64,000 nucleotides of DNA. It comes from an uncultured candidatus Porisulfidus sp. (GTDB lineage Bacteria > Pseudomonadota > Gammaproteobacteria > Poriferisulfidales > Poriferisulfidaceae). Under the pieces are notes generated by a model. The model made no database searches, had not been told where the DNA came from, and saw only the letters and a list, made by a program, of their open reading frames with translations. This document shows, one piece after another, positions 3,528 to 61,327 of the stretch; positions within the stretch are counted from its first letter, which is position 1; each line of letters opens with the position of its first letter. A program made the position numbers and the translations under genes. Location of the stretch: the NCBI GenBank assembly GCA_965116025.1, contig OZ220480.1, forward strand, positions 193,335 through 257,334, read 5' to 3'.

Positions 3528-3549
3528 CCCGTTGGGTCATCCACGACAG

Positions 3550-4095: not shown

Positions 4096-4115
4096 GTCGT
4101 GGATGACCCAACGGG

Positions 4116-7395: not shown

Positions 7396-7396
7396 C

Positions 7397-41039: not shown

Positions 41040-41089
41040 TAACGCCCACGGATGAGCGTCGCCCGAACGGCGTTCTCCGTTCAGACATC

Positions 41090-41353
41090 TCACTTTTTCG
41101 CCGCCGCGCGGCGGCGGACCTCTTGCGGCGATATCTCCAACGGCGGACAGATCTCTAGCCGGTCTCCCTCCCGAAGCTCGTACCCAAGGGAGACCGTTCG
41201 GCCGAACACGCCAATCCCCCATTTTCCTCTCTTTTCCTCCGGCTCTGTCCAGCCATAGTGGGACAGCGCGTCGGACACGGTCGCTCCTTCTGGCAACGTT
41301 AGGATCCGCGTCGCCGGACGCGGGTCGCTAGCGTCAACCACCTCGATTTTCAT
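41090..41353 (-). CDS. RnfH/RatB (UPF0125) family protein
   Basis: MKIEVVDASDPRPATRILTLPEGATVSDAL... is ubiquitin-fold-like. The position between bamE and ratA matches the E. coli yfjF context. Confidence 0.6.
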   Translation of the reverse strand: MKIEVVDASDPRPATRILTLPEGATVSDALSHYGWTEPEEKRGKWGIGVFGRTVSLGYELREGDRLEICPPLEISPQEVRRRAAAKK

Positions 41354-41786
41354 CCCCGCTCCGCGCGCGGCGGTGAGCTTCCGCGACGAAAGACTGCACC
41401 AACCGCCCACATACTTCGGCGAACACGGCGGAAAGCGGCAAAAAACGGAACGAGCCTTTCACCTCGAATTCCATGTCCAACGCGACCCGGCAGCCATGTG
41501 GCCGTTCGGAAAAGGTCCAGATTCCCTGCAGATGCCGGAACGGGCCGTCTTGCAGGCGCATGTCGATTCGCTCGCGTGGGGTCAGCGCGTTGCGCGTGGT
41601 GAACGAAGTGCGCAAGCCACCACGCGCGAGCGTCAATCGGGCCGTCACTTCAGCGTCAGCATGGCTCAGCAACTCCGCCCGGGGACACCAGGGAAGAAAT
41701 TTCGGATAGGATTCGACGTCGTTGACGAGCTCGTACATCAAGGAAGCCGGGTACGGCACCCGGGCCTCGCGGTGAATGCGCACGGA
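41334..41786 (-). CDS. ratA: SRPBCC/RatA (YfjG)-family ribosome-association protein
   Basis: REARVPYPASLMYELVNDVESYPKFLPWC...TSFTTRN aligns with E. coli RatA. The start was trimmed to avoid overlapping the upstream transporter gene (the ORF track gives 41873). Confidence 0.65.
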   Translation of the reverse strand, partial: SVRIHREARVPYPASLMYELVNDVESYPKFLPWCPRAELLSHADAEVTARLTLARGGLRTSFTTRNALTPRERIDMRLQDGPFRHLQGIWTFSERPHGCRVALDMEFEVKGSFRFLPLSAVFAEVCGRLVQSFVAEAHRRARSGDENRGG

Positions 41787-41794
41787 ACCGTGGG

Positions 41795-43162
41795 TCAGAG
41801 CCAGCCGAAACCGTTCAGCAGGATCAAGAAGACCGCCACCGGGACGAGCAACCGGACCAACCAGAGCCAGCACTCGAACAGCCAGCCTTTTCCCATATCC
41901 GCTTCGCCCTCAAGCACGGATCGCTTGACCATCCAGCCCGCGTAGACCGCGATCAGGATGCCGCCGACCGGCAACATGACGTTCGAGGCCAAATAGTCCA
42001 TCCACTCGAAGAAGTTCTGCCCGTGGAATGTCCAGTCCTTTCCGATATTGAACGAGACCACGGTGCCTAAGCCCGCGAGCCAGATCACGGCCGAGCTGGC
42101 CAAAGTCGCCGCGCGGCGACTCATTCCACGCGAGTCCACCAGCCAAGAGACCGCTGGCTCTAGTAGCGAGATCGCCGAGGTCCAAGCCGCAATCAGGGTC
42201 AGCGCGAAAAACAGGACACCGATCAGCCAACCCCCAGGCATTTGTCCGAAGGCGATCACCAGGGTCTGGAAAATCAATCCCGGTCCGGCATCCGGCTCCA
42301 TGCCGCTCGCGAATACGATTGGGAACAAGGCGATGCCCATCAGGATCGCGACGAGCACATCCGCGGTCACGACTACTCCGGCCGCTTCCGGGATAGAGAA
42401 CTGGCGAGGCAGGTAGGCACCATAGACCATAATCGCGCCCATGCCAATGCTCAGCGAGAAGAACGCCTGGCCCATCGCCTTGAGCGCGACTTCTGGAGAT
42501 AGCTGCTCATAGTTGAACGAGAACAGGTAATTGATGCCACGGCCGAAATCTCCATGCAACGCGGCGAAACCGACCAGTAGCAGCAACAACCCGAAGAGGG
42601 AGGGAATGAGAATGGTCGTGGCCTGCTCAATGCCTCTGTTGACACCGCGCAGAATGATCCAGGCGACCAGAATGGTCATCAGGGTGTGCCAGCCAAGCAA
42701 CCTCCAGGGACTTTCAGTCAGTCGGGCGAAGTGACTCTCCGCGGTCGCCCGATCAAAGCCTTGGAACGTGCCGAATATGCTGTCCACCAAATACGCCGCG
42801 GTCCAGCCAGAAATAACCAAGTAGAAAGACAAGATCATCACTCCGGCCAGCATGCCGAGCCAGCCGATCGCTTGCCAGTTCCTTGAGCGTCCGTCCTGCT
42901 TAGCTAAGCGACGCATGGTCTGGATCGGACTGTGGCGGCCGCGACGACCTAGCACGATCTCGGCCATCATGACCGGAAAACCGATCAGCACCACGCAGGC
43001 TAGGTACACTAGGACGAACGCGGCCCCGCCATTCTCCCCAGTCATGTAGGAAAATTTCCAGATGTTGCCTAATCCCACCGCTGAGCCAATGGCGGCGAAC
43101 ATGAACGCGGTGCGCCGCGACCACAACCCATGTTGCGAGAATTCGGGGGAAGACGCTTTCAT
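41795..43162 (-). CDS. sodium-dependent transporter, NSS/SNF family
   Basis: FMFAAIGSAVGLGNIWKFSYMTGENGGAAFVLVYL, with about 12 predicted TM helices. Confidence 0.8.
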   Translation of the reverse strand: MKASSPEFSQHGLWSRRTAFMFAAIGSAVGLGNIWKFSYMTGENGGAAFVLVYLACVVLIGFPVMMAEIVLGRRGRHSPIQTMRRLAKQDGRSRNWQAIGWLGMLAGVMILSFYLVISGWTAAYLVDSIFGTFQGFDRATAESHFARLTESPWRLLGWHTLMTILVAWIILRGVNRGIEQATTILIPSLFGLLLLLVGFAALHGDFGRGINYLFSFNYEQLSPEVALKAMGQAFFSLSIGMGAIMVYGAYLPRQFSIPEAAGVVVTADVLVAILMGIALFPIVFASGMEPDAGPGLIFQTLVIAFGQMPGGWLIGVLFFALTLIAAWTSAISLLEPAVSWLVDSRGMSRRAATLASSAVIWLAGLGTVVSFNIGKDWTFHGQNFFEWMDYLASNVMLPVGGILIAVYAGWMVKRSVLEGEADMGKGWLFECWLWLVRLLVPVAVFLILLNGFGWL

Positions 43163-43275: not shown

Positions 43276-43953
43276 TCAATCGTCGCCGAACGCGGAGAGC
43301 AGATGCAGCAGACTAGTGAACAGGTTATACAGCGACACGTACAAAGTCACGGTCGCCATGATGTAGTTGGTCTCCCCACCGTGGATGATGGCACTGGTCT
43401 GGTATAGGATCAGGCCACACATCAGCAGAACGAACATGGCCGAGATTCCGAGCATGGCTCCAGACACCTCCATGCCGAACATTGAGGCGACGACCAAGCC
43501 CAGCCCAGACAGGAAAGCGACCAGAATTCCCACCATCAACATCCCGCCCATGAAACTGAAGTCTTTGCGCGTGGTCAGCACATAGCCGGACAGTAGCAGG
43601 AAGATGCCGCCGGTCATCCCGAGGGCAGTGGTCACCAGTTGCGAGCCGTTTCGCGTAGCCGTCAGGTAATAGTCGATGATCGGACCAAGCGTGAGTCCCA
43701 TGAAGCCGGTCAGGGCGAAAACGCATAGCAGTCCCCATCCGCTGTCACGGAACCGGGTCGTGAGAAACAACAGCCCGAAATAGCCAACCAGCGTCAGAAT
43801 CAGCCCCGGATGCGGCCAGTTGAATGCCATGGAAAGTCCGGCCATCGCCGCGCTGAACAACAGCGTGAGAGACAGTAGCGCATAGGTGTTGCGCAAAACG
43901 CGGTTGACGGCAAATGCCGGAGCCGAGGCGGAAATCGCGCGATGTTGATTCAT
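43276..43953 (-). CDS. Bax inhibitor-1/YccA-family membrane protein
   Basis: Seven hydrophobic helices. YccA-like motifs NRVLRNTYALLSLTLLFSA and a charged C-terminal tail. Confidence 0.8.
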   Translation of the reverse strand: MNQHRAISASAPAFAVNRVLRNTYALLSLTLLFSAAMAGLSMAFNWPHPGLILTLVGYFGLLFLTTRFRDSGWGLLCVFALTGFMGLTLGPIIDYYLTATRNGSQLVTTALGMTGGIFLLLSGYVLTTRKDFSFMGGMLMVGILVAFLSGLGLVVASMFGMEVSGAMLGISAMFVLLMCGLILYQTSAIIHGGETNYIMATVTLYVSLYNLFTSLLHLLSAFGDD

Positions 43954-44061
43954 TGGAGAATCCTCCCTGAAAAGATAGCGACTAGTTTACCAAATCCCTA
44001 GCCACGCGAGTTTCTGGGTTTCTCGATTTGCTGATGCTCTACGATACCATTTCTAATCCCA

Positions 44062-45948
44062 TTGACGCTGCTGGCGGCGTCGCTGTCGGCGCTGTCGCTG
44101 TCGGCGCGGGCGGAGACGATCAACCTGTACGGGTGGCAGAACCACTCGTGGGAGTTCGTGAACATCGACGGCGGGCGCAGCTTCGACCGCATCCAGTCGA
44201 ACGCCGGGAACATCGGCTTCTCGGCCAGCGTGGACACCGGCATGAGCGATATCAAGGTGAACCTGCAGTGCGAGCAGTTCACCTACTACAACCACTTCGC
44301 CGGCGGCACCGGCTGGTGCAACCGCAACTCCAAGATCGGGCTGGCGCATCCGATGGCCGGCGAGATCATGTTCGCCACCTGGCTGCTGCCGTACAACGAG
44401 GGCGTGGCCCAATGGGTGGACCCGTTCTACGACGCCGGGGCCGACTCGCACACCAGCATCATGGGCTCGGTCGGGGCCAACACCATCTTCTACAACACCG
44501 GCGACTTCGACCAGCAGGCGTCGGCGTCGGGGCCGGCGACCGGCTTCTCCGGGGCGGAGTTCAACTACGCCGGGGCCGGCTACGACACCGGCTTCAACCG
44601 GCGCCAGGAGAACATCATCCAGTACTGGTCGCCGAACTGGAACGGCTTCGTGTTCCGCTTCGCCTGGACGGCCGGCAACCGCGACGAGACGATGGCGCCG
44701 ACCGGCGGCGGGAAGATCGACCCGGTGATCCGCTCGAGCAGCCTGGCGTACACGAACGGCCCATTGTGGCTGGCGGCGACCTGGCAGGACCACGAGGACT
44801 GGACGGCGGTCTCGGTCGGGGAGATGGAGAGCTCGGACGCGGAGAGCTTCCGTCTGGCCGGGCGCTACATCATGGACCTGGGCGATGGTATGAGCGTGCA
44901 GCTGTCGGCCATGTGGGAGACTTTGGAGTACGAGTTCCACGGCGTGACCACGGTCGAGAAGGCGATGGCGGCGTTCGGCTACGGGAACTTCGCGTCCTCC
45001 TACGCCGAGCCGATCTACGCCATGGATGCGGCCACCAAGAAGGTGGACGAGACGGTCATGGACCCCACCCAGGCCGAGATCGACGCGCAGAAAACTCGTG
45101 GAGCGGCGCTCGAGTTCCTCACGGACGAGAAGGGGCTCCTAAGGTCGATGGAGGTTAAAGAAGGGGACAGTGGCAACCCGAGAGGCACATCCTTAAAAGG
45201 AATGTTCGTATCCAAGCCTTTATTCAATGATCTCACCACGAACGATAAAGGAATGCTGATCGGCTGGACGGATCAGACCGATCTGAGCATGCCTGATGCC
45301 ACCTCAGTTCATGGCGCGTACGCGGCCTTCCTCACCACTGACGCCGCCAAAACGGCTATTCGAGCGGGAAACCTGAAAGAGGTGATGCGCAAGCAGTCGT
45401 TCTACACCACCCGGCTGACCTCCACCGAGCTCACGGCTCTGAAGCTACCCGATAAAGCTGTCTCAGGAGCGGATACCGGCGCGGTGGTTGGCGACAAATG
45501 GCTCTACGACAACATCGTGGCGCATGCCAAGACCGAGGCCAAGAAGATGAAGGAAACGGCCAAGGAGGCGGAGATGAAGGCCGTGGAGACGGCCCGGATG
45601 GCCAAGAGCATGGGGTCGAACGTCAAGATCGAGCGGGACGCCTGGATGGTGTCGGGCAAGATCAAGTTCGGCGGCCCGCTGGACTTCCGCTTCTCCTACA
45701 TGGACGCCGACGACCTGGAGCTGTCGTGCAACTACTGCATGGGGGACTGGGACGAGACGGCGGCGGACGCCTGGAACGTCGGGGTGTTCTACACGATGCC
45801 GGCGGGGACCGAGCTTAGGCTGACGTATTCGGAAGTCAACAACGACGACAACGGGACCTACGGGCAGGGCATCTCGGGGACCGGCCTGGGGACGCCGGGG
45901 GCGGAAATCGAGATGTTCGCGCTGGGGATCGTGCACTGGTTCGACTGA
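44062..45948 (+). CDS. porin-like family copy 5 (N-form A, cassette type Z)
   Basis: Conserved frameworks. An in-frame TGA sits immediately upstream of ...IPFLIPLTLLAAS, so the only available start is TTG at 44062. Promoter-like box TTTCTCGATTTGCTGATGCTCTACGATACC upstream. Confidence 0.7.
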   Translation: MTLLAASLSALSLSARAETINLYGWQNHSWEFVNIDGGRSFDRIQSNAGNIGFSASVDTGMSDIKVNLQCEQFTYYNHFAGGTGWCNRNSKIGLAHPMAGEIMFATWLLPYNEGVAQWVDPFYDAGADSHTSIMGSVGANTIFYNTGDFDQQASASGPATGFSGAEFNYAGAGYDTGFNRRQENIIQYWSPNWNGFVFRFAWTAGNRDETMAPTGGGKIDPVIRSSSLAYTNGPLWLAATWQDHEDWTAVSVGEMESSDAESFRLAGRYIMDLGDGMSVQLSAMWETLEYEFHGVTTVEKAMAAFGYGNFASSYAEPIYAMDAATKKVDETVMDPTQAEIDAQKTRGAALEFLTDEKGLLRSMEVKEGDSGNPRGTSLKGMFVSKPLFNDLTTNDKGMLIGWTDQTDLSMPDATSVHGAYAAFLTTDAAKTAIRAGNLKEVMRKQSFYTTRLTSTELTALKLPDKAVSGADTGAVVGDKWLYDNIVAHAKTEAKKMKETAKEAEMKAVETARMAKSMGSNVKIERDAWMVSGKIKFGGPLDFRFSYMDADDLELSCNYCMGDWDETAADAWNVGVFYTMPAGTELRLTYSEVNNDDNGTYGQGISGTGLGTPGAEIEMFALGIVHWFD

Positions 45949-45969
45949 CCGGTTGGGTCACCCACGATA

Positions 45970-46002
45970 GCGAGCGGGCGCCTTCGGGCGCCCGCTTTCT
46001 TT
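45970..46002 (+). terminator. rho-independent terminator of copy 5
   Basis: AGCGGGCGCC-ttcg-GGCGCCCGCT followed by TTCTTT. Confidence 0.7.
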
Positions 46003-46487
46003 GAGGATCAAGATTCTCGACTTGATCCGCCGCCACGAGGCAAATCGTGATGATGGCGGATCGCGAGAGCCAGATGTAACTGCTTCGGATGGTCGCGCGG
46101 ACGCTTGGAGTGATGCCACGAAAGCCGTGCGGGGCGATCCGGCTTCAGGCTTTCATCAAGGATCGGAAACTCGATAGTTCCAGGGATCGATAGGCTGACC
46201 CCTGTTCGTCGCCGCGCGGGAAGTCTGCTTGATCGAGGACGACAAACCTCTCACTCCGTTTCTTCCTCGCGGCGCGCGCTAACCCGAACCCTCCGATTTC
46301 CCGCCGCCTCGCTTGGATTCCAGCGATGTCAAGAATTCTTGGTCCACCACCTTGTCGTGGATCGGGTCATCCCGATCTGGCCTGCCGCGAGCGGATCGCC
46401 TTCCGGGTGCGTGGGGGCGCGTCGGAACCAGGCCTCACGCCGCCAGCGCTGGACCCACTCTCGATCCAACCGGAAAACACCAGTCTC

Positions 46488-46520
46488 AAAAGAAAGCGGG
46501 CGCCCGAAGGCGCCCGCTCT
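46488..46520 (-). terminator. rho-independent terminator of copy 6
   Basis: Mirror GC hairpin plus T-tract on the minus strand. Confidence 0.7.
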
Positions 46521-46541
46521 CGTCGTGAATGATCCAACGGA

Positions 46542-48449
46542 TCAGTCGAACCAGTGCACGATCCCCAGCGCGAACATCTCGATCTCCGCGCCAGCCACCC
46601 CCAGCCCGGTCCCCGAGATGCCCTGCCCGTAGGTCCCGTTGTCGTCGTTGTTGACTTCCGAATACGTCAGCCGCAGCTCGGTCCCCGCCGGCATCGTGTA
46701 GAACACCCCCACGTTCCAGGCGTCCGCCGCCGTCTCGTCCCAGTCTCCCATGCAGTAGTTGCATGACAGCTCCAGGTCGTCGGCGTCCATGTAGGAGAAG
46801 CGGAAGTCCAGCGGGCCGCCGAACTTGATCTTGCCCGACACCATCCAGGCGTCCCGCTCGATCTTCACGTTCGACCCCATGCTCTTGGCCATCCGGGCCG
46901 TCTCCACGGCCTTCATCTCCGCCTCCTTGGCCGTTTCCTTCATCTTCTTGGCCTCGGCCGTCGCATGCTTCACGATGTTGTCGTAGAGCCATTTGTCGCC
47001 AGTCACATCACCGGTATCCGCTCCTGAGACAACTTTATTGGGTAGCTTCAGGGCCGTGAGCTCCGTGGAGGTCAGCCGGGTGGTGTAGAACGACTGCTTG
47101 CGCATCACCTCTTTCAGATTGCCCGCTCGAATAGCCGTTTTCGCGGCGTCAGTGGTGAGAAAAGCTCCGTACTCGCCGTGAACCGTGGACGTACTAAGAT
47201 TGTTGAAGTTTCTCGTCGTCCAACCGGTCAGCATTCCTTTATCGTTCGTGATCAGCGTATTGAATAAAGCGCCAGTTACGGCTCTTGTGATGGATGTACC
47301 GGCATTAGTACTCCCAGAAGGCGTCATTAATCCTTTCTCGTCCGTCAGAAACTCAAGCGCCGCTCCACGAGTTTTCTGCGCGTCGATCTCGGCCTGGGTG
47401 GGGTCCATGACCGTCTCGTCCACCTTCTTGGTGGCCATGTCCATGGCGTAGGCCTGCTCGGCGTAGGAGGACGCGAAGTTCCCGTAGCCGAACGCCGCCA
47501 TCGCCTTCTCGACCGTGGTCACGCCGTGGAACTCGTACTCCAAAGTCTCCCACATGGCGGACAATTGAACGCTCATGCCGTCGCCCAGGTCCATGATGTA
47601 GCGCCCGGCCAGACGGAAGCTCTCCGCGTCCGAGCTCTCCATCTCCCCGACCGAGACCGCCGTCCAGTCCTCGTGGTCCTGCCAGGTCGCCGCCAGCCAC
47701 AGCGGGCCGTTCGTGTACGCCAGGCTGCTCGAGCGGATCACCGGGTCGATCTTGGGGCCGGCCGCGTAATTACCTTTGGCGTCCTTGAGCGCGTGGGTCT
47801 CGTCGCGATTGCCGGCCGTCCAGGCGAAGCGGAACACGAAGCCGTTCCAGTTCGGCGACCAGTACTGGATGATGTTCTCCTGGCGCCGGTTGAAGCCGGT
47901 GTCGTAGCCGCCCCCGGCGTAGTTGAACTCGTTGCCGGAGAAGCCAGTGCCAGGATTGGACGCCGACGCCTGCTGGTCGAAGTCGCCGGTGTTGTAGAAG
48001 ATGGTGTTGGCCCCGACCGAGCCCATGATGCTGGTGTGCGAGTCGGCCCCGGCGTCGTAGAACGGGTCCACCCATTGGGCCACGCCCTCGTTGTACGGCA
48101 GCAGCCAGGTGGCGAACATGATCTCGCCGGCCATCGGATGCGCCAGCCCGATCTTGGAGTTGCGGTTGCACCAGCCGGTGCCGCCGGCGAAGTGGTTGTA
48201 GTAGGTGAACTGCTCGCACTGCAGGTTCACCTTTATGTCGCTCATGCCGGTGTCCACGCTGGCCGAGAAGCCGATGTTCCCGGCGTTCGACTGAATGCGG
48301 TCGAAGCTGCGCCCGCCGTCGATGTCCACGAACTCCCACGAGTGGTTCTGCCACCCGTACAGGTTGATCGTCTCCGCCCGCGCCGACAGCGACAGCGCCG
48401 ACAGCGACGCCGCCAGCAGCGTCAATGGGATTAGAAATGGTTTTTTCAT
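46542..48449 (-). CDS. porin-like family copy 6 (N-form B, cassette type Z), best-supported expressed copy
   Basis: Canonical ATG with AGGAG 8 bp upstream, and a classical signal peptide MKKPFLIPLTLLAASLSALSLSARA. Confidence 0.85.
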   Translation of the reverse strand: MKKPFLIPLTLLAASLSALSLSARAETINLYGWQNHSWEFVDIDGGRSFDRIQSNAGNIGFSASVDTGMSDIKVNLQCEQFTYYNHFAGGTGWCNRNSKIGLAHPMAGEIMFATWLLPYNEGVAQWVDPFYDAGADSHTSIMGSVGANTIFYNTGDFDQQASASNPGTGFSGNEFNYAGGGYDTGFNRRQENIIQYWSPNWNGFVFRFAWTAGNRDETHALKDAKGNYAAGPKIDPVIRSSSLAYTNGPLWLAATWQDHEDWTAVSVGEMESSDAESFRLAGRYIMDLGDGMSVQLSAMWETLEYEFHGVTTVEKAMAAFGYGNFASSYAEQAYAMDMATKKVDETVMDPTQAEIDAQKTRGAALEFLTDEKGLMTPSGSTNAGTSITRAVTGALFNTLITNDKGMLTGWTTRNFNNLSTSTVHGEYGAFLTTDAAKTAIRAGNLKEVMRKQSFYTTRLTSTELTALKLPNKVVSGADTGDVTGDKWLYDNIVKHATAEAKKMKETAKEAEMKAVETARMAKSMGSNVKIERDAWMVSGKIKFGGPLDFRFSYMDADDLELSCNYCMGDWDETAADAWNVGVFYTMPAGTELRLTYSEVNNDDNGTYGQGISGTGLGVAGAEIEMFALGIVHWFD

Positions 48450-49181
48450 TTTTTGACTCCTGAAAAATTAGTCTCCGCAAGGCAATCACTCCTCACGAAC
48501 AATGTGGTGAAATTACCACATTTCGGCGTGGATTATATAGCCTAGAGATGATGTCAATCGGCCATGCTGTTGTTTTTTAGAAACAAGTTTGGTTTAGGTA
48601 AGGTGGATGTCGATATCAGCATCTTTCTAATTTAAAAACAACAGGATTTCTTTACCTACTGCATTGCCTCGATAGGCGTATAGATATCCGAAACTGATAA
48701 TGTTTTCTAGCTTTAGGAGATTTTCTGGAGTCATAGCGAGATGATCACTTCCCATGGATATGGTAGTAAAACGACCACATTTCTGCACGGTTATAGAACC
48801 TCTGGACACAGGCAAACGTCATGCCTATTGTTAGATTTTAGTGACAGGAGCGAATGAGAAAACCAGAAGCTGGTTTCAGTTTTCTATTGTTCTAAAAACA
48901 ACAACATATCTTTCCACCAAAATTTCTATCGGATAGGATATAGTGAACGTATCAAGTTCGCCGTTATCAACTCGGCAACTGATTAGCGAATTGGCCTACA
49001 AAAATGAACGGAGCGGCGACGAAAATGCGTTCAAGCCAATTCGATTTTGCAACTGGCTTGGCACGGGTTTTCATGGTCCAAATATAGTAATGAATCCAAT
49101 TATCAATAGTGACCGTCGCTTGCTCCCGCCTGAAATCTCGTTATCAGAGCTCGGAAGAGCGACGCTCAAACTTAATCCTTA

Positions 49182-50357
49182 ATGAAGGAGAAAATAAAAA
49201 TGACAGCAAGAGACTTTGAGATGGTTGAGGAATCTGGCCGTTCGGTCCCTTCCAAAACGTACGCTAGCTACGTCGGACTCGATGTCCACAAGGACAGCAT
49301 CGCCGTCGCCGTCGCTCATGCGGGCCGAGGAGCTCCAGAATCCTGGGGTACCATACCGAACACGAAGAAAGCGATCGCAAAACTCGTGGATCGGCTGTAT
49401 GCGAAGAACGAGACTTTCCTGATTTGCTACGAGGCTGGCCCATGCGGATACACCCTGTATCAGAACCTGATTGCCATGGGGGTAGATTGCCGGGTCGTGG
49501 ATCCTCCAAGAAACGAAAAGATCAAGACGGACCAGCGGGACGCGTTACGTTTGGCACGGCTTTTGCGCGCTGGAGAACTGGTAGAGATTTGGGTGCCGGA
49601 TCAAGAGCAAGAAGCGATTCGCGACCTGTGCCGTTGTCGAGCCGATTTCATGGTGCAGCAACGGAAACTGCGCCAGCAATTCAACGCTTTCTTGCTACGC
49701 CATGGACACCATTGGCCAACAAACTGGAAACGCTGGACGCAAAAACATCTCGATTGGTTGGAAAAGCTCGATTTCCCGTATATTTTCATGAGCGAGGTTC
49801 GAGATGAATATATCTCGGCCGTCCGCCTGTCCGCGTCAAGAATTCTTGATCTCGACAAAAAAATCGACAAGGCTGTGCAGGCTTGGTCGTGGGCGCCAGT
49901 GGTCAACAGCCTGAAAGCGTTGCGTGGGTTCGACCAGTTATCCGCGGTTATGTTGCTATCCGAATTGGGTGATATCAGTCGTTTCGAATCTCCTAGTCAA
50001 CTTATGGGCTACTTGGGACTGGTTCCGTGCGTGTATAGCTCTGGGGCGTATCACCGCACCGGGGGCGCCACGCGAGCGGGAAACCGTCATGCCCGGCAAG
50101 TATTGATCGATTCGGCTTGGTGCTACCGGTTCCCCGCTCGTCAAACCGCCTACATGAGCCGCAAATCGGAAGGCGCATCCGCATACGCCCAAACTATTTC
50201 GTGGAAAGCGCAAAAACGATTGTGCGGACAATATCGGAAGTTGACCACGGCGGGAAAGAGCCAGAAAGTTGTTTGCGTGGCGATTGCGAGAGAATTGTCG
50301 GGGTTTGTCTGGGATATCGTCTGTCACGAAAAAGCCCGCCTAAGCCGAGTGAGATAG
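49182..50357 (+). CDS. IS110-family transposase
   Basis: YVGLDVHKDSIAVAV...ICYEAGPCGYTLY, with a C-terminal IS116/IS110/IS902-type domain. Embedded in an AT-rich segment whose IS boundaries are undetermined. Confidence 0.85.
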   Translation: MKEKIKMTARDFEMVEESGRSVPSKTYASYVGLDVHKDSIAVAVAHAGRGAPESWGTIPNTKKAIAKLVDRLYAKNETFLICYEAGPCGYTLYQNLIAMGVDCRVVDPPRNEKIKTDQRDALRLARLLRAGELVEIWVPDQEQEAIRDLCRCRADFMVQQRKLRQQFNAFLLRHGHHWPTNWKRWTQKHLDWLEKLDFPYIFMSEVRDEYISAVRLSASRILDLDKKIDKAVQAWSWAPVVNSLKALRGFDQLSAVMLLSELGDISRFESPSQLMGYLGLVPCVYSSGAYHRTGGATRAGNRHARQVLIDSAWCYRFPARQTAYMSRKSEGASAYAQTISWKAQKRLCGQYRKLTTAGKSQKVVCVAIARELSGFVWDIVCHEKARLSRVR

Positions 50358-50608
50358 GAGGTATATGCCGAGACTTGTCGCAAAAATCAGGGTGCTTCAG
50401 TCTGTCGGAGAATCCTTGTAATTTCTATATCGGTGCGAGACCGTGTATGCTTGATTCGCATATTTGAACTCGTGATCCATGCTATTAGACAAAGGTTCAG
50501 CTCCGCGACTTCTACAGGTCACATCGGTAACCAACCCGAGTTTCATCCATGGCCTGCTATCGCAAATGATTGGAGTATCCTGGTTTTTGCGCCGCGTCTA
50601 GGGGGCAG

Positions 50609-51507
50609 CTACTTGATGCTCTCGAGCCAATGTCCTTCGGAGACAATCCTGATTGGAAATTCTTGGGTACGCAACGTCACAGCCTTCTCAATTTTTCGGC
50701 CATACGCGGACTGTATCCAAGTACCCTCAGCATAGGATCCGATCACCAAATAATCCGTTGCTCTTGTGGGGGATTTTTGGCAAATTCCCTGCCGTGTTTG
50801 GATTTCACGCTCGCACTGTATGCGGCTACCATAGAAAAACTTTCCAGTCAGGCAAAATTTGCGACCCGCGAATACGACTTCCGGGGGTGGGTCATCCAGC
50901 CATAGCGTTGTCGCATTCAGGCACTCCCCAACTTCCGTCTTCCCGCCGACCAAGCCGCTCAGCAGTTGTAGCAATTGCATAGTTCTATCGGTATCTCCCG
51001 CGTTCTGCCCCCAAAAAGAGTTCAGCTTCTCTCGGAACGCCTTGGCCACTGGATTGTTGAATGTCTCTTCATGATCTATCAGCCAAGTACGCAACGCCCG
51101 TGTCTCGCTTTCAGCAATTTTTCCATCCGCGATCAAGCCGCGGCATAGCCCCAGCAATTCGGGGATGTAACCACCGTCCAATTCGTTGATTGCAATTCGA
51201 CCGTGACCAAATGATTCCTCTCCACCCGAATAATCATCCAAAAGAATATGAACTAGTTGCGTCAGTTCCTCGCTTTCACTGGTATCCAGCGTCTCGTCCT
51301 TGAGCATTTGTCCGACGCGCGTCCGCAGAATTTCCACGAGAGAATTCCCTGTCTCTTGATCGATCAGCCAAGCATAAAGCGATTCCACTTCGCTTTGGAC
51401 GATTTTTCCGTCCGCGATCAGGCCCTTGCATAGGCCTATTAGTTCTGAACTTTGGCGTCCATTCAAACGACCACGATGGTACTTCAAGAAATTCGATTGA
51501 TCAGACA
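50609..51507 (-). CDS. protein with two TerB-like repeats and a C-terminal BRCT domain
   Basis: Repeats LIGLCKGLIADGKIVQSEVESLYAWLID and LLGLCRGLIADGKIAESETRALRTWLID. C-terminal region FAGRKFCLTGKFFYGSRIQCEREIQTRQGICQKSPTRATDYLVIGSYAEGTWIQSAYGRKIEKAVTLRTQEF is BRCT-like. Start MSDQ at 51507. The ORF-track extension to 51811 is antisense read-through into copy 7. Confidence 0.6.
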
Positions 51508-51590
51508 TTAGGAAGAGCGACGTTTTGGCCAGATATTCCGTGGAGAGTTTTTCGATTTGCTGATGCCCTACGATACCATTTCTAATCCCA

Positions 51591-53486
51591 TTGACGCTGC
51601 TGGCGGCGTCGCTGTCGGCGCTGTCGCTGTCGGCGCGGGCGGAGACGATCAACCTGTACGGGTGGCAGAACCACTCGTGGGAGTTCGTGGACATCGACGG
51701 CGGGCGCAGCTTCGACCGCATCCAGTCGAACGCCGGGAACATCGGCTTCTCGGCCAGCGTGGACACCGGCATGAGCGACATAAAGGTGAACCTGCAGTGC
51801 GAGCAGTTCACCTACTACAACCACTTCGCCGGCGGCACCGGCTGGTGCAACCGCAACTCCAAGATCGGGCTGGCGCACCCGATGGCCGGCGAGATCATGT
51901 TCGCCACCTGGCTGCTGCCGTACAACGAGGGCGTGGCCCAGTGGGTGGACCCGTTCTACGACGCCGGGGCCGACTCGCACACCAGCATCATGGGCTCGGT
52001 CGGCGCGAACACCATCTTCTACAACACCGGCGACTTCGACCAGCAGGCGTCGGCGTCGGGGCCGGCGACCGGCTTCTCCGGGGCGGAGTTCAACTACGCC
52101 GGGGCCGGCTACGACACCGGCTTCAACCGGCGCCAGGAGAACATCATCCAGTACTGGTCGCCGAACTGGAACGGCTTCGTGTTCCGCTTCGCCTGGACGG
52201 CCGGCAACCGCGACGAGACGATGGCGCCGACCGGCGGCGGGAAGATCGACCCGGTGATCCGCTCGAGCAGCCTGGCGTACACGAACGGCCCGCTGTGGCT
52301 GGCGGCGACCTGGCAGGACCACGAGGACTGGACGGCGGTCTCGGTCGGGGAGATGGAGAGCTCGGACGCGGAGAGCTTCCGCCTGGCCGGGCGCTACATC
52401 ATGGACCTGGGCGACGGCATGAGCGTTCAATTGTCGGCCATGTGGGAGACTTTGGAGTACGAGTTCCACGGCGTGACCACGGTCGAGAAGGCGATGGCGG
52501 CGTTCGGCTACGGGAACTTCGCGTCCTCCTACGCCGAGCCGATCTACGCCATGGACATGGCCACCAAGAAGGTGGACGAGACGGTCATGGACCCCACCCA
52601 GGCCGAGATCGACGCCCAGATGACCCGCGGGCTCGCCATCCAGCTGCTCACGGATGACCGAGGACGGGAGAAAGAGGACGATGATGGCAACAGCTTTTTG
52701 GCTACCGCTCTAGGCCAGGAAATAGTGACGACGGCCGCTCCCAACAAGCCCGCCGAGTGGACGTTCAAAGAAATAGATGCCAGTGCTGACCTGCCAACGA
52801 CTACGGTCATAGGAGAGTACCGGCAGTATCTTAGTACCGCCCTCAAGAAAATCGCCGGTCCGGGCGGACATCAAACCTCGGGGCTCATCTACAGCGTGAA
52901 TCCCGTGAAGCATCGCCAGTCGCAGCCGTTCTGGACCACCCGGCTGACCTCCACGGAGCTCACGGTCCTGAAGCTGGGCTACGCGACGACCATGATCGCC
53001 TCATCCGGGGAGAATCAGAAAGTGTTTGGCGACCCTGCGCTGTACACGGCGATCATGAACGCGGCGAAGGAAAATGCCAAAACGAAAAAGCAGATGGACA
53101 AGGAGGCGGAGATGAAGAAGGTGGAGGACGCCCGGATGGCCAAGAGCATGGGCTCGAACGTGAAGATCGAGCGGGACGCCTGGATGGTGTCGGGCAAGAT
53201 CAAGTTCGGCGGCCCGCTGGACTTCCGCTTCTCCTACATGGACGCCGACGACCTGGAGCTGTCATGCAACTACTGCATGGGAGACTGGGACGAGACGGCG
53301 GCGGACGCCTGGAACGTCGGGGTGTTCTACACGATGCCGGCGGGGACCGAGCTGCGGCTGACGTATTCGGAGGTCAACAACGACGACAACGGGACCTACG
53401 GGCAGGGCATCTCGGGGACCGGGCTGGGGACGGCTGGCGCGGAGATCGAGATGTTCGCGCTGGGGATCGTGCACTGGTTCGACTGA
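51591..53486 (+). CDS. porin-like family copy 7 (N-form A, cassette type Z)
   Basis: Same 5' box as copies 2 and 5. No ATG (TTG at 51591). Intact frameworks. Confidence 0.7.
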   Translation: MTLLAASLSALSLSARAETINLYGWQNHSWEFVDIDGGRSFDRIQSNAGNIGFSASVDTGMSDIKVNLQCEQFTYYNHFAGGTGWCNRNSKIGLAHPMAGEIMFATWLLPYNEGVAQWVDPFYDAGADSHTSIMGSVGANTIFYNTGDFDQQASASGPATGFSGAEFNYAGAGYDTGFNRRQENIIQYWSPNWNGFVFRFAWTAGNRDETMAPTGGGKIDPVIRSSSLAYTNGPLWLAATWQDHEDWTAVSVGEMESSDAESFRLAGRYIMDLGDGMSVQLSAMWETLEYEFHGVTTVEKAMAAFGYGNFASSYAEPIYAMDMATKKVDETVMDPTQAEIDAQMTRGLAIQLLTDDRGREKEDDDGNSFLATALGQEIVTTAAPNKPAEWTFKEIDASADLPTTTVIGEYRQYLSTALKKIAGPGGHQTSGLIYSVNPVKHRQSQPFWTTRLTSTELTVLKLGYATTMIASSGENQKVFGDPALYTAIMNAAKENAKTKKQMDKEAEMKKVEDARMAKSMGSNVKIERDAWMVSGKIKFGGPLDFRFSYMDADDLELSCNYCMGDWDETAADAWNVGVFYTMPAGTELRLTYSEVNNDDNGTYGQGISGTGLGTAGAEIEMFALGIVHWFD

Positions 53487-53508
53487 CCCGTTGGGTCACT
53501 CACGGCAA

Positions 53509-53540
53509 TGAGCGGGCGCCTTCGGGCGCCCGCTTTCTTA
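53509..53540 (+). terminator. rho-independent terminator of copy 7
   Basis: GCGGGCGCC-ttcg-GGCGCCCGC followed by TTTCTT. Confidence 0.7.
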
Positions 53541-54030
53541 TGGGCTCAGGAATTCCTGACAGGTCCGCCACCAGGCGGGACCAAGACGATGGCCAGCCTC
53601 GAGACCGAGACGGACCCGCTTCGGGCGGTCGCGCAGGCGCTTGGAGTGATGCCACGAAAGCCGTGCGGGACGCTCCGGCTTCAGGCTTTCATCAAGGATC
53701 GGAAACTCGATAGTTCCAGGGATCGATAGGCTGACCCCTGTTCGTCGCCGCGCGGGAAGTCTGCTTGATCAAGGACGACGGACCTCTCACTCCCTTTCCT
53801 CCTCGAGACGCGCGCCGATCCACGCCCTCCGATTTCTCACCGCGTCTCTTAGATCCAAGCGATATCAAGAATTCTCGGTCCACCGCACCACCTTGTGGTG
53901 GATCGGGTCATCCCGATCCGGTCTGCCGCGAGCGAATGGCCTTCCGAGCGTGTGGCGGGCGCGTCGAAGCCAGGCCTCGCGTCCGCCGGCGCTGGCCCGA
54001 CTCCCGATCTGGCCGCGAAACGCCGGACCC

Positions 54031-54063
54031 AAAGAAAGCGGGCGCCCGAAGGCGCCCGCTCGC
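54031..54063 (-). terminator. rho-independent terminator of copy 8
   Basis: Mirror GC hairpin plus T-tract. Confidence 0.7.
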
Positions 54064-54084
54064 TATCGTGGATGACCCAACGGG

Positions 54085-55998
54085 TCAGTCGAACCAATGC
54101 ACGATCCCCAGCGCGAACATCTCGATCTCCGCCCCCGGCGTCCCCAGCCCGGTTCCCGAGATGCCCTGCCCGTAGGTCCCGTTGTCGTCGTTGTTGACTT
54201 CCGAATACGTCAGCCGCAGCTCGGTCCCCGCCGGCATCGTGTAGAACACCCCCACGTTCCAGGCGTCCGCCGCCGTCTCGTCCCAGTCTCCCATGCAGTA
54301 GTTGCATGACAGCTCCAGGTCGTCGGCGTCCATGTAGGAGAAGCGGAAGTCCAGCGGGCCGCCGAACTTGATCTTGCCTGACACCATCCAGGCGTCCCGC
54401 TCGATCTTGACATTGGAGCCCATGCTCTTGGCCATCCGGGCCGCCTCCACATCCTTCACCTTCTTGTCATGAGCCGTTTTCGCGGCCGTCTCCTTCATCT
54501 CCTTGGCATTGGTCTTCGCCTGCGTCATGATCGCCGTGTACAGTTGTTGGAAACCCCACACCGGATCGCTTGTCGAAGGACTGGTGTCTGGGCCTGGCCG
54601 CGCGAGGGCCGTGAGCTCCGTGGAGGTCAGCCGGGTGGTCCAGAACGGCTGCTTCTGGCGAAGCTCCACGTAATCCCCGCCAGCGTTATATGCAACTCTG
54701 TTGTCAAAAAGAAATTTGTTGTACTCTCCGTACACCGTGGTCGTCGGAAGGTTGCTGTTATTGGTACTGGTGAATCTCCACGCGGTGGGATCGCCCGGCT
54801 TGTCGTTCGTGTTTATGGTATGGGCTATGGCGTTAATTACTCCCTGTTGATCGGTAGCTACAGGATTGCTTGCGCTTGCCCTATACAGTTTAAACAATCC
54901 CCGGTCATCCGTGATCAACTCGATGGCGAGCCCACGGGTCTTCTGCGCGTCGATCTCGGCCTGGGTGGGGGCCGCCACCTCCCCCATCGGGTCCACCTTC
55001 TTGGTGGTCTCGTCCATGGCGTAGATCGGCTCGGCGTAGGAGGACGCGAAGTTCCCGTAGCCGAACGCCGCCATCGCCTTCTCGACCGTGGTCACGCCGT
55101 GGAACTCGTACTCCAAAGTCTCCCACATGGCCGACAATTGAACGCTCATGCCGTCGCCCAGGTCCATGATGTAGCGCCCGGCCAGACGGAAGCTCTCCGC
55201 GTCCGAGCTCTCCATCTCCCCGACCGAGACCGCCGTCCAGTCCTCGTGGTCCTGCCAGGTCGCCGCCAGCCACAGCGGGCCGTTCGTGTACGCCAGGCTG
55301 CTCGAGCGGATCACCGGGTCGATCTTGGGGCCGGCCGCGTAATTACCTTTGGCGTCCTTGAGCGCGTGGGTCTCGTCGCGATTGCCGGCCGTCCAGGCGA
55401 AGCGGAACACGAAGCCGTTCCAGTTCGGCGACCAGTACTGGATGATGTTCTCCTGGCGCCGGTTGAAGCCGGTGTCGTAGCCGCCCCCGGCGTAGTTGAA
55501 CTCGTTGCCGGAGAAGCCAGTGCCAGGATTGGACGCCGACGCCTGCTGGTCGAAGTCGCCGGTGTTGTAGAAGATGGTGTTGGCCCCGACCGAGCCCATG
55601 ATGCTGGTGTGCGAGTCGGCCCCGGCGTCGTAGAACGGGTCCACCCATTGGGCCACGCCCTCGTTGTACGGCAGCAGCCAGGTGGCGAACATGATCTCGC
55701 CGGCCATCGGATGCGCCAGCCCGATCTTGGAGTTGCGGTTGCACCAGCCGGTGCCGCCGGCGAAGTGGTTGTAGTAGGTGAACTGCTCGCACTGCAGGTT
55801 CACCTTTATGTCGCTCATGCCGGTGTCCACGCTGGCCGAGAAGCCGATGTTCCCGGCGTTCGACTGAATGCGGTCGAAGCTGCGCCCGCCGTCGATGTCC
55901 ACGAACTCCCACGAGTGGTTCTGCCACCCGTACAGGTTGATCGTCTCCGCCCGCGCCGACAGCGACAGCGCCGACAGCGACGCCGCCAGCAGCGTCAA
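54085..55998 (-). CDS. porin-like family copy 8 (N-form B, cassette type Z')
   Basis: Intact frameworks. The N-terminus reads ...TTGIQKPFLIPLTLL, with ATT in place of the ATG of copy 6 and no RBS. Confidence 0.7.
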   Translation of the reverse strand: MTLLAASLSALSLSARAETINLYGWQNHSWEFVDIDGGRSFDRIQSNAGNIGFSASVDTGMSDIKVNLQCEQFTYYNHFAGGTGWCNRNSKIGLAHPMAGEIMFATWLLPYNEGVAQWVDPFYDAGADSHTSIMGSVGANTIFYNTGDFDQQASASNPGTGFSGNEFNYAGGGYDTGFNRRQENIIQYWSPNWNGFVFRFAWTAGNRDETHALKDAKGNYAAGPKIDPVIRSSSLAYTNGPLWLAATWQDHEDWTAVSVGEMESSDAESFRLAGRYIMDLGDGMSVQLSAMWETLEYEFHGVTTVEKAMAAFGYGNFASSYAEPIYAMDETTKKVDPMGEVAAPTQAEIDAQKTRGLAIELITDDRGLFKLYRASASNPVATDQQGVINAIAHTINTNDKPGDPTAWRFTSTNNSNLPTTTVYGEYNKFLFDNRVAYNAGGDYVELRQKQPFWTTRLTSTELTALARPGPDTSPSTSDPVWGFQQLYTAIMTQAKTNAKEMKETAAKTAHDKKVKDVEAARMAKSMGSNVKIERDAWMVSGKIKFGGPLDFRFSYMDADDLELSCNYCMGDWDETAADAWNVGVFYTMPAGTELRLTYSEVNNDDNGTYGQGISGTGLGTPGAEIEMFALGIVHWFD

Positions 55999-56093
55999 TG
56001 GGATTAGAAATGGTTTTTGAATCCCAGTTGTGGCAAAATTAGTCTAGAGTTTCCCGTTAGACGGGTTTCCGAATAAACTGACTGGTCAAAATC

Positions 56094-57436: not shown

Positions 57437-58648
57437 ATGTCGAAATACCGCAAGGTCGTGTTAGCGTATTCGGGAGGTTTAGACACATCGATCATCCTGA
57501 AATGGTTGCAGGAACGCTACGAATGCGAAGTCGTAACGTACACTGCCGATTTGGGCCAGCAAGAGAATCTCGAACCAGCCCGGCAACGGGCGCGAGCGTT
57601 GGGCATCCAAAATATAAGGATTGAGGACCTGCGCGAGACGTTCGCGCGGGACTATATTTTTCCGATGTTGCGGGCCAACCCTTTGTATGAGGGACAGTAT
57701 CTTCTTGGCACCGCGATCGCCCGGCCGCTCATCGCGGCGGGAATGGCGCGGGCCGCGCGCGAGACAGGAGCCGACGCGGTCGCGCATGGCGCGACCGGGA
57801 AAGGAAACGATCAGGTGCGTTTCGAACTGGCTATCCGCGCGCTGAATCCGAACTTGGGCATTATCGCTCCATGGCGAGAATGGGATCTGAGGTCCCGGGC
57901 CGACTTGCTCGCGTACGCGGGACGAAATGGCATTGAGGTCGAACGAAATCCAGATGGTGGGAGCCCCTACTCAATGGATGCCAATCTGTTGCACATCTCT
58001 TACGAGGGAGGGGTTCTGGAAGATCCGAATGCCGCCCCACCCGTCGATATGTGGCGTTGGACCACGGACCCTCGGGAAGCTCCGGACGAGCCCCAGATAT
58101 TGCGTATCTCGTTCGAGGAGGGAGACCCCGTCGCCGTGGATGGGGAAGAATTGGAGCCAGCCGCGTTGATGAAGGCGGTTAACGCGGTTGCCGCGCGCCA
58201 TGGCATCGGCCGGGTCGACATGGTTGAGAACAGATATCTGGGCCTCAAGTCACGTGGGTGCTACGAGACTCCCGGCGGTACTGTGCTGATGGCCGCGCGC
58301 CGGGCAGTGGAATCGCTGACTCTGGATCGCGAGGTCGCGCACCTCAAGGAATCGCTAATGTCACGGTACGCGACGATGGTCTACAACGGCTACTGGTTCA
58401 GTCCAGAGCGCGAAGCCATGCAACGGATGATCGATTATTCCCGACAAGATGTTCGCGGAGAGGCCAGAATGCGCCTGTACAAAGGCTCGGTCACTGTGGA
58501 AGGCAGGCAGTCCCCCAACAGCCGGTATGACCCAACCCAGGCGACTTTTGAGGACGACCAAGGCCGGTTCGATCACACTGACGCCACGGGATTTATCCGG
58601 CTGTCCGGCCTGAGACTGGAATCCTGCCGACCTGTGGATGGTATATAG
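57437..58648 (+). CDS. argG: argininosuccinate synthase
   Basis: [19 protein letters not shown] (PP-loop) ... [13 protein letters not shown]. Confidence 0.9.
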
Positions 58649-58679
58649 TAGCCTAGCAACGTTCATGCCCCGGAAATCC

Positions 58680-59402
58680 ATGCATCGTCAACTCCGTTCT
58701 TCCGCCCTGTCATTGGCTTGCCTGTTGACGCTCTCTGTTCCCGCGCTAGCTGACGATCTCGCCCCCAACGATCCGCGTGATCCTTGGGAAGGATACAATC
58801 GCGCGATATACGGCTTCAACAAGGGAGTCGACTCGATGCTCTTGAAACCGGCCGCGCAAGCCTACGACGCGCTGACCCCGGAAGCGGTCGACCAAGGCAT
58901 CACCAATTTTTTCTCCAACCTCGGAGAGATCCGAAATTCGCTCAATAATTTCCTGCAGGGCAAGCCGGACAAGGGAGCCACTTCTCTCGCGCGGTTGCTG
59001 ATCAACACTACGGTCGGATTGCTTGGGTTCATTGATGTCGCTACCGAGGTTGGAATTCACAAATCCAAAGAGGACTTCGGTCAGACTCTTGGTGCTGGAG
59101 GGATCGAGCCTGGTCCTTATTTCGTGTTGCCATTTCTTGGCCCAAGCACGGTGCGCGACGCCATCGCCACACCTGTCGATATCGCCACCAATCCCTTCAC
59201 TTGGGCGGATGACAGCGAAGTCAGAGCCGTCGCCTTTGGGGTTCAAGTCGTGGATTATCGGGCTGACCTTCTGGATACGGAGGAGGCCGTTGAAGGCATT
59301 ACCGAGGATGAGTACGCGCTGGTGCGCAACGCCTATTTGGATCAGCGCCGGTTCGACGTAAGCGATGGCGCGGTCGCCGACGACTACGAGATAGAAGACT
59401 GA
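58680..59402 (+). CDS. mlaA: MlaA/VacJ-family lipoprotein
   Basis: Signal peptide, then DPWEGYNRAIYGFNKGVD...TTVGLLGFIDVATEVG...GPYFVLPFLGPSTVRD. The ORF track begins at 58638; the ATG at 58680 fits better. Confidence 0.8.
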   Translation: MHRQLRSSALSLACLLTLSVPALADDLAPNDPRDPWEGYNRAIYGFNKGVDSMLLKPAAQAYDALTPEAVDQGITNFFSNLGEIRNSLNNFLQGKPDKGATSLARLLINTTVGLLGFIDVATEVGIHKSKEDFGQTLGAGGIEPGPYFVLPFLGPSTVRDAIATPVDIATNPFTWADDSEVRAVAFGVQVVDYRADLLDTEEAVEGITEDEYALVRNAYLDQRRFDVSDGAVADDYEIED

Positions 59403-59692
59403 CGAGCGGCCCACCGACTAGGCGGATCGCTCGCCCACAGGTGCTTTCCTCGGCTTGGCTCTAACCGCAAAACAGCTTTTTCAGCCAAGCGCAGAACCCA
59501 CTGTTCTGGCTTTGTTGCCCCTCGCTTTGGCTTTGGGAATCGCTACACGAACCACTGTCGCTGGCCGCGGTGGAAGAACCGCCTGAACCGCTTCGGCTGA
59601 TCATTTGTTCGTGATGGCGTTTCAACACGGAATCTGTTGGTGCGCTCATTATCAGTTGGCCCTCGTGCCATTATCACTCTGACATTGTACAT

Positions 59693-61134: not shown

Positions 61135-61327
61135 AAATATCTGAAATAAATTAAACTTTATTCGGTGCAAGTAAGCCTGCCGGGAAGGTAGCGCGGTCGC
61201 AAAAAAGTTTTTAGCTTCGCCTGTTTTGGTGTCGTGTTATGATTATCAAACTTGACCAGATGGATTACTGACATCCTTGTGACCTTCCTTAAAAAACGTT
61301 TGATTTTTATTCGGGAAGAAAATTTTT

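Follow-up and report, generated by a model that had tools for sequence, protein, structure and literature searches.

A stretch of 64,000 nucleotides from the genome of an uncultured Candidatus Porisulfidus species (contig OZ220480.1, positions 193,335 to 257,334; the whole stretch is called the window in the following) carries eight copies of a single porin gene, designated c1 to c8, which are organised as four convergent pairs. Only c6 possesses an ATG start codon together with a ribosome-binding site, and the copies differ above all in a domain that is predicted to reside in an extracellular loop of the barrel. Together with a layout that is conserved, signs of past gene conversion and one inversion seen between species, these sequence features lead us to the view that the locus probably serves programmed variation of a porin surface domain by inversion and gene conversion. 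Two parts of this reading, i.e., that the variable region is a surface domain and that gene conversion has acted on it, we hold to be very likely. A preliminary description of the same DNA, made from the letters alone, had noticed the hypervariable inserts of c5 to c8 but missed how their surroundings are organised, namely that a single copy is expressible, that the others are startless and that a conserved recombinase module separates c6 from c7. The contig measures 2.02 Mb, and the related loci used for comparison stem from metagenome-assembled genomes that bear the name Candidatus Porisulfidus, a symbiont of sponges that oxidises sulfur. At least two further porin copies (P0002 and P0004) are present in the same genome outside the window, which brings the number to at least ten in a genome of about 2 Mb. 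The porin copies, their inserts in loop L6 and the elements upstream of c6 are as follows.

1749-3527, plus strand: porin copy c1 (pair 1)
4116-5956, minus strand: porin copy c2 (pair 1)
25472-27268, plus strand: porin copy c3 (pair 2)
27895-29817, minus strand: porin copy c4 (pair 2)
44047-45948, plus strand: porin copy c5, startless; homology from codon 4 (CCATTTCTAAT), in-frame TGA five codons upstream, no ATG, no ribosome-binding site
44950..45621, plus strand: L6 insert of c5, 224 amino acids; entry module 44947-45009, internal module 45400-45444, exit end 45592-45615
46542-48449, minus strand: porin copy c6, candidate expression copy, 635 amino acids; sole copy in the window with ATG-AAA-AAA (MKK) and a ribosome-binding site
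46869..47516, minus strand: L6 insert of c6, 216 amino acids; entry module 47457-47519, internal module 47046-47090, exit end 46875-46898
48450..48578, minus strand: genus-conserved region upstream of c6; A-rich box 48568-48578, TTGACA 48552-48557, TATAAT 48532-48537, AGGAGT 48456-48461
48502-48521 and 48474-48499, minus strand: leader hairpins of c6
51576-53486, plus strand: porin copy c7, startless; partner of c6 across the recombinase module
52479..53159, plus strand: L6 insert of c7, 227 amino acids; entry module 52476-52538, internal module 52929-52973, exit end 53130-53153
54085-56013, minus strand: porin copy c8, startless; in-frame TAG 11 codons upstream, no start codon between TAG and boundary
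54412..55089, minus strand: L6 insert of c8, 226 amino acids; entry module 55030-55092, internal module 54601-54645, exit end 54418-54441

All copies match the Pfam family Porin_4 (PF13609) with 66-68 bits against a cut-off of 27, the match being split in two by the insert. An AlphaFold2 monomer model calculated from an alignment of 120 sequences (mean predicted local distance difference test score, pLDDT, of 73) predicts a 16-strand barrel, for which Foldseek returned Omp32, VhChiP, PorB and OmpF as top matches (E values of 1e-15 to 1e-10). In this model, the insert (residues 308-526) is located between strands 11 and 12, i.e., in extracellular loop L6 and on the same side as the long loop L3 (residues 115-190, modelled with low confidence). 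The six internal periplasmic turns, T2-T7, comprise 2-6 residues each. The preliminary description had left the orientation of the insert to structure prediction, and the model puts it on the extracellular and not on the periplasmic face. The K/E/A-rich stretches at the ends of the inserts, which had been suspected to be helical, correspond to one predicted helix of 38 residues (residues 485-522 of c6) with pLDDT above 90. The insert yielded neither Pfam matches nor structural matches in the PDB, and in the wider family the length of L6 ranges from about 10 to about 380 residues. On the basis of the model, c5 to c8 are paralogs of a 16-strand general porin with a mostly helical domain of about 220 residues predicted in loop L6. 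All copies terminate with ...GIVHWFD (e.g., 45925-45945), that is, with phenylalanine at position -2 and aspartate in last place. This lack of a terminal aromatic residue is unusual: most outer-membrane barrel proteins end in such a residue, which acts as a targeting signal, though it is not a criterion of the Pfam family.

When the seven intact copies of the window were aligned, 252 of the 285 columns of L6 proved variable, accompanied by 12 variable columns in L4, four in L3, two in L8, two at strand ends and none in the periplasmic turns. Besides the insert, there are thus three smaller variable sites, in L3, L4 and L8, which had escaped the preliminary description. The ratio of nonsynonymous to synonymous substitution rates (dN/dS) across the aligned paralogs amounts to 0.00-0.25 for the frameworks and to 0.42-0.96 for the inserts; it is elevated in the inserts but not demonstrated to exceed 1. 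The position in L6, the restriction of variation to predicted outer loops and the raised dN/dS of the inserts bear out the earlier proposal of a hypervariable surface domain under diversifying pressure.

The frameworks of c5 to c8 share 92-99.9% DNA identity, and each encloses an insert of 216-227 residues. The entry module TTVEKAMAAFGYGNFASSYAE was found in all four, just as had been noted before. The internal module is likewise present in all four, its exact form being F(Y/W)TTRLTSTELT(A/V)L(K/A), so that its first two positions had been given slightly incorrectly. The K/E/A-rich ends all finish with ARMAKSMG. The modules are shared at the DNA level, where exact matches of at least 14 nucleotides form islands within sequence that is otherwise 30-50% identical. 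It had been assumed that the modules are embedded in otherwise unrelated sequence. This does not hold: the inserts can be aligned over their whole length and form one homologous domain, the base of which (A-M-x-A-F-G) is invariant or nearly so in 120 homologues. The shared modules are the conserved scaffold of a single domain, consisting of base helices, an internal helix and a long return helix, and the hypervariable stretches are the distal parts of the L6 domain.

The inserts are indeed richer in AT than the frameworks, with a GC content of 0.57-0.60 in c5 to c8 and of 0.52-0.54 in c1, c3 and c4, compared with 0.64-0.67 for the frameworks. The difference of 5-13 percentage points is smaller than the contrast of roughly 50% versus 70% claimed originally; the two segments cited as examples, 2690-3060 and 47180-47340, do have a low GC content (0.52 and 0.47, respectively) but are local minima. 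The lower GC content had also suggested that the inserts are horizontally acquired cassettes of foreign origin. We consider this scarcely credible. GC content at third codon positions (GC3) is 0.71-0.81 in the inserts and 0.94-0.97 in the frameworks of all eight copies (e.g., 44047-44949 and 45622-45945), and twelve other open reading frames in the window have values of 0.60-0.80 (0.68-0.80 for the ten housekeeping-type genes among them). Since it is the frameworks that deviate, whereas the inserts conform to the norm of the host genes, a foreign origin lacks support. The same contrast recurs in all relatives examined, as GC3 is lower in the insert than in its own framework in each of 37 copies from related genomes. 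Moreover, the homology of the inserts to each other, the base conserved across 120 family members and the absence of Pfam and structural matches for the insert all speak against imported cassettes. The GC3 excess of the frameworks may instead be due to strong selection on codons or to GC-biased conversion of the homogenised parts, accompanied by fast turnover of the inserts.

Among the eight copies in the window, c6 alone reads caggagtcaaaaaATGAAAAAACCATTTCTAATC. In the other seven, similarity starts exactly at CCATTTCTAAT, i.e., at codon 4, in-frame stop codons are present just upstream, and neither an ATG nor a ribosome-binding site is found. The upstream region of c6 is of a type common to ATG-bearing copies in at least nine related genomes and comprises an A-rich box, TTGACA, a -10-like element, two leader hairpins and AGGAGTC. 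Nine compensatory base pairs support the hairpins across ten sequences (c6 and its counterparts in L001, L003, L004, L010, L012, L013, L014, L017 and L020, the numbers denoting loci in related genomes). After the second hairpin comes a U-rich run that closely precedes the ribosome-binding site, and the element could be a stabilising leader or an attenuator. In the related genomes, 36 of 37 copies have intact frames, while ATG occupies the start position in 12. Nine of the remaining 25 carry TAA, TAG or TGA at precisely this position, and the conserved leader is absent from all 25. We infer that the startless copies are silent. Three of them (L004 2934, L020 6001 and L028 472) read AATGAAAAACCATTT, with the ATG out of frame and a run of five instead of six A residues; slippage by one base in this run would bring back the MKK start. 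A degenerate leader suspected upstream of c8 was dismissed, because its alignment score equalled the mean of shuffled sequences and the region is unlike the c6 leader.

The copies could, however, constitute an ordinary multigene family in which all members are expressed from unrecognised starts, with frameworks evolving in concert, a diversifying L6 and no programmed switching. Every window copy except c2 has an intact frame, and an in-frame TTG at codon 9 of the startless copies, assumed as start by public gene callers, would yield MTLLAASLSALSLSARA. In c1, a GTG directly precedes codon 4. Tandem outer-membrane protein families of the Ehrlichia type vary via differential expression (PMC4534519). 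Against this, the TTG lacks a ribosome-binding site, and the signal peptide resulting from initiation there has no charged N-region. In related genomes, nine of the 25 startless copies show a stop codon exactly at the ATG position, and all 25 lack the leader that ATG-bearing copies conserve. Nor would independent genes be expected to show recurrent inverted pairing of one ATG-bearing with one startless copy. We judge such a family to be rather unlikely.

Alternatively, the startless copies could be functionless duplicates that arose by segmental duplication and are now decaying. Six of the seven in the window are intact and c2 is disrupted by a one-base frameshift at a G6 run in its insert (4767-4780, minus strand), where G7 would restore the whole frame; c8 has no remnant of the leader. 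The G6 run could stem from an error in sequencing the homopolymer, from slipped-strand variation or from the decay of a silent copy. Decay is nevertheless very improbable, as intact frames extend over 1.3-2.0 kb in 36 of 37 related copies and include fast-evolving inserts that homogenisation of the frameworks could not repair. Furthermore, dN/dS of the inserts is below 1, also between startless c5 and c6 (0.42), and at least ten copies are retained in a genome of only about 2 Mb.

Several lines of evidence point to exchange between copies. The inserts of c1 and c3 differ at four of 573 nucleotides (99.3% identity), whereas their N-terminal frameworks exhibit 44 differing sites and an indel of 24 nucleotides, and their downstream spacers are only 72% identical. 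Near-identical inserts in diverged flanks indicate recent conversion of the insert alone. The variable sites in the frameworks form mosaic haplotypes. In addition, the spacers between pairs are 72-88% identical compared with 92-99.9% for the frameworks, which points to homogenisation of the coding frameworks. A diversity-generating retroelement was also considered. No reverse-transcriptase domain was detected by Pfam among the 29 open reading frames of the window that were scanned, those in 38836-41945 and 58638-64000 being outside the scan, and the inserts differ by indels and whole blocks and not by point changes alone.

Inversion is suggested by the layout between c6 and c7 and by comparison with related genomes. 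Over about 0.9 kb, c6 and c7 carry their N-terminal frameworks as inverted repeats with 94% identity, and the segment with the promoter-like region lies between the opposed 5' regions. When loci were oriented by the recombinase, L001 and L012 proved to have a flank of 3.7 kb next to the 3' terminus of their startless copy; in L004, this flank is inverted and adjoins the active copy at its 3' terminus. This is a single comparison between species with one comparable flank, and a crossover within the porin genes that turns the central segment round would be expected to produce such an arrangement. In L069 (2252-17788), the closest related genome, one pair resides between a Bax-inhibitor gene and carA. 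The counterparts of its two junctions in the window are pair 3 (43276-48449) and pair 1 (1749-5956), which are 42 kb apart, and rearrangement breakpoints thus coincide with porin pairs. Assembly fold-back artefacts as the source of the convergent pairs were rejected, because the arms hold different inserts and the spacer is not palindromic. The 60 nucleotides upstream of c7 (51516-51575) are 100% identical to those upstream of c2 (5957-6016), and 29 of them recur with 93% identity upstream of c5 (44018-44046), which suggests that c2 and c5 stem from a copy of the c7 boundary.

The segment between c6 and c7 is of low GC content and contains two genes, one for a recombinase and one for a BRCT-like protein. 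These genes and the spacers within the two adjacent convergent pairs are listed here.

49182..50357, plus strand: IS110-family (DEDD) recombinase gene, 391 amino acids; G--P----SG motif at residue 279
50609..51508, minus strand: BRCT-like gene, 299 amino acids; two internal repeats, weak C-terminal BRCT match, start codon 67 nucleotides from the c7 boundary
45949..46541, unstranded: c5/c6 spacer; terminator hairpins 45974-45995 and 46496-46517, no conserved open reading frame
53487..54084, unstranded: c7/c8 spacer; terminator hairpins 53512-53533 and 54038-54059

In the same orientation, the spacers of the other three pairs match the c5/c6 spacer with 73-87% identity. No open reading frame is common to the spacers of the pairs, and comparison with related genomes revealed no similarity beyond the terminator hairpins. 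An Rfam scan at gathering thresholds of the whole window, spacers included, returned one tRNA elsewhere and nothing more. We treat the spacers as terminator-bearing intergenic regions.

The recombinase matches PF01548, PF02371 and NF033542, the last with 229 bits against a cut-off of 140. Its G--P----SG motif reads GLVPCVYSSG, such that the catalytic SG is kept; in Piv, this motif is needed for inversion (PMC11187229). A block of 2.3 kb (49241-51508) is found with 67-77% DNA identity in at least 12 loci of other genomes, of which L020 keeps the recombinase part and L028 the BRCT end only. Wherever both flanks are visible, the gene order is ATG-bearing porin, recombinase, BRCT gene and startless porin. 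The recurrence of this layout argues for c6, recombinase, BRCT gene and c7 as the ancestral core, to which c5 and c8 were added as convergent partners. Position and neighbours are the same in at least 12 loci, which gives no hint of a mobile element. Close orthologues of the recombinase (385-394 amino acids) form one cluster per genome-sized contig among those listed and are 71-82% identical at the amino acid level; as this exceeds the DNA identity, the gene appears to be under purifying selection. For the BRCT-like protein, about 58 full-length orthologues exist, of which those on megabase-sized contigs apparently belong to the same clade as the porin matches. About 200 nucleotides upstream of the recombinase gene are shared among several relatives. 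In seven loci (L001, L011, L014, L025, L033, L044 and L067), an extra small gene that is absent from the window lies between the active porin and the recombinase. It begins with METVGAYEAKMHLPKLLDRV... and by eye resembles a Phd/YefM-type antitoxin.

If c6, with its promoter-like region, structured leader, ribosome-binding site and ATG, is the expressible copy, then c5, c7 and c8 along with c1 to c4 would be startless archives of alternative L6 domains. Through recombination between the near-identical frameworks, the c6 start would come to precede another L6 cassette. If c6 and c7 recombined by inversion, c7 would receive promoter, leader and ATG; an inversion across the spacer, between c5 and c6, would exchange their inserts; and non-reciprocal gene conversion could carry a whole or partial cassette from any copy into the expression site. 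In each case, the outcome would be an altered exposed face of the major porin, and switching of this kind would be expected within populations. A catalytic or auxiliary part in this exchange may fall to the IS110-family recombinase and the BRCT-like protein.

A bolder and less likely reading is a domesticated IS110-family recombinase, possibly RNA-guided, that would drive programmed inversion or cassette exchange at the porin expression site together with its clade-specific BRCT-like partner. Involvement of the recombinase, which we propose because of its conserved position and its intact motifs and on no other ground, is a possibility to be viewed with some reserve. Switching could also be real and yet depend solely on general homologous recombination of the RecA/RecF type, in which case the IS110-family gene would be a settled insertion sequence with no role. 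The inverted framework repeats, with 880-920 bp in the N-terminal and about 330 bp in the C-terminal part, offer ample substrates. The homology boundary at CCATTTCTAAT is sharp, and neither a site nor a guide-like match was found there. More distant homologues of the recombinase resemble ordinary multicopy insertion sequences on short contigs. Inversion in the C. fetus sap system, which is RecA-dependent, provides a precedent. On the other hand, the single recombinase of the 64-kb window retains its catalytic motif, is under purifying selection, and occupies the same position next to the BRCT gene in 12 loci, which speaks against a gene without a role. Exchange by general recombination without the recombinase is plausible enough to be taken seriously, but we would not call it probable.

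Programmed switching as such, and the part assigned to the recombinase in particular, have to be weighed against a number of further observations besides the possible TTG and GTG starts. Average dN/dS of the inserts stays below 1. The TTGACA and TATAAT boxes of c6 are spaced by only 14 nucleotides and a promoter scan made no call, which renders promoter strength in the source genome uncertain. P0002 is a second copy in the genome with an MKK start and implies more than one expression site. A metagenome scan for starts of the active type returned 31 matches, only two of which belong to the porin family, both at contig ends. In L020 (OZ244883.1, 4601-5698), the recombinase is situated between two opposed porin copies without a BRCT gene and reversed relative to the copy with the MKK start. 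The non-coding region upstream of the recombinase gene did not show guide-like complementarity to porin 5' boundaries above shuffled controls, no consensus structure emerged from RNAalifold, and Rfam returned no match at E values up to 5. To our knowledge, sponges do not possess antibody-based immunity. Apparent guide matches in L020 and L012 were discarded as overlaps with a porin gene or an antitoxin gene. In L020, the copy facing the MKK-start porin has an alternative in-frame start (MSMKINEK...).

Surface variation by means of cassettes is familiar chiefly from pathogens that evade antibodies. Porins are classic receptors for phages and toxins, and phages, contact-dependent toxins or host recognition are plausible selective agents here. 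Defence-type genes accompany other porin pairs in the window (6106-8014, 23331-25010 and 31474-33033). A candidate HEC-01 pair (AAA_21 and DUF4276; E values of 2e-154 and 1.5e-80) and a NERD/UvrD helicase (E value of 1.6e-55) each lie within about 500 nucleotides of a porin copy, and a TraD/mad8-like ATPase is encoded about 1.7 kb from c4. The porin pair of L069 adjoins TerB, BrxC/D and a DEAD helicase. Should programmed variation be confirmed, the logic of cassette variation would extend to a sponge symbiont with a reduced genome and to a general porin with an unusually large outer-loop domain, and phage, toxin or host-cell recognition would be indicated as the driving pressure. Should the recombinase indeed be domesticated, a mutualistic sponge symbiont would own a dedicated heritable system for rewriting a large surface domain, in parallel to Piv yet acting on a porin and in a non-pathogen. 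This would represent a natural, conserved cellular role for an IS110-family recombinase, a class of interest for programmable genome rearrangement. We found no description of such a porin variation system in the searchable literature.

The porin locus works like several known systems and belongs to none of them. In C. fetus, the promoter segment of the sap locus reportedly lies between opposed homologues with a conserved 5' region, about eight of which are clustered, and its inversion selects the one that is expressed. The porin locus shares with sap the promoter-bearing segment between opposed homologues that have a conserved 5' region in common, as well as the clustering of about eight homologues. 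For the single promoter on an invertible segment of sap, see Dworkin & Blaser 1996, cited in PMC4902306. Unlike the porin locus, sap encodes an S-layer protein and has no recombinase inside its invertible segment. Convergent pairs occur here in addition, and the variable part is an internal loop domain and not the whole C-terminal body.

With Piv of Moraxella, a DEDD recombinase related to IS110/IS1111 transposases that is encoded beside an invertible segment swapping variable parts of a surface protein (PMC11187229), the enzyme described here has in common its DEDD/IS110 relationship, the G--P----SG motif and the location next to candidate invertible DNA. Piv belongs to the short IS492/IS621 branch (315-330 amino acids; PMC11187229), in contrast to the 391 amino acids of the present protein, a distinction judged by size. 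Piv acts on a pilin at defined inversion sites; here the target would be a porin, no sites were found and a BRCT-like partner is present. Bridge-RNA recombinases can perform inversion (PMC11208160), and IS110-type elements feature a non-coding region upstream of the gene (PMC11187229). The recombinase resembles the IS110 bridge-RNA/seekRNA enzymes in that it matches the NCBIfam equivalog for IS110 family RNA-guided transposases and is preceded by a non-coding region of several hundred nucleotides. It departs from RNA-guided elements of this family by its orthologous position in 12 loci, its single copy in the window and the lack of a detected guide RNA.

TprK of Treponema pallidum acquires new sequence in its variable regions from donor sites via segmental gene conversion (PMC4534519). 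TprK and the porin are alike as predicted outer-membrane barrel proteins with variable regions rewritten by conversion. In TprK, however, the variation is spread over seven short regions fed by more than 50 short donor segments, compared with one large loop domain and full-length donors here. In Msp2/P44 of Anaplasma, conserved 5' and 3' ends enclose a hypervariable centre; promoter-bearing sites are few, unexpressed donors ('functional pseudogenes') are many, and mosaics originate by segmental gene conversion (PMC4534519). The likeness includes an outer-membrane protein (Msp2/P44 is possibly a porin), a hypervariable centre, few expression sites accompanied by donors, and a small genome. Msp2/P44 proteins, however, belong to pfam01617 and not to Porin_4, and the Anaplasma donors are truncated at both ends, whereas those of the porin locus are of full length except for the first three codons and the leader. 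Further differences are the presence of at least two ATG-bearing copies, a host without antibodies and a recombinase gene embedded in the locus. Three characteristics of silent-cassette systems of the Msp2/P44, pilE/pilS and vlsE type are found in the porin locus as well: one or a few expression sites, startless donors that mostly retain coding capacity, and conserved flanks with mosaic conversion.

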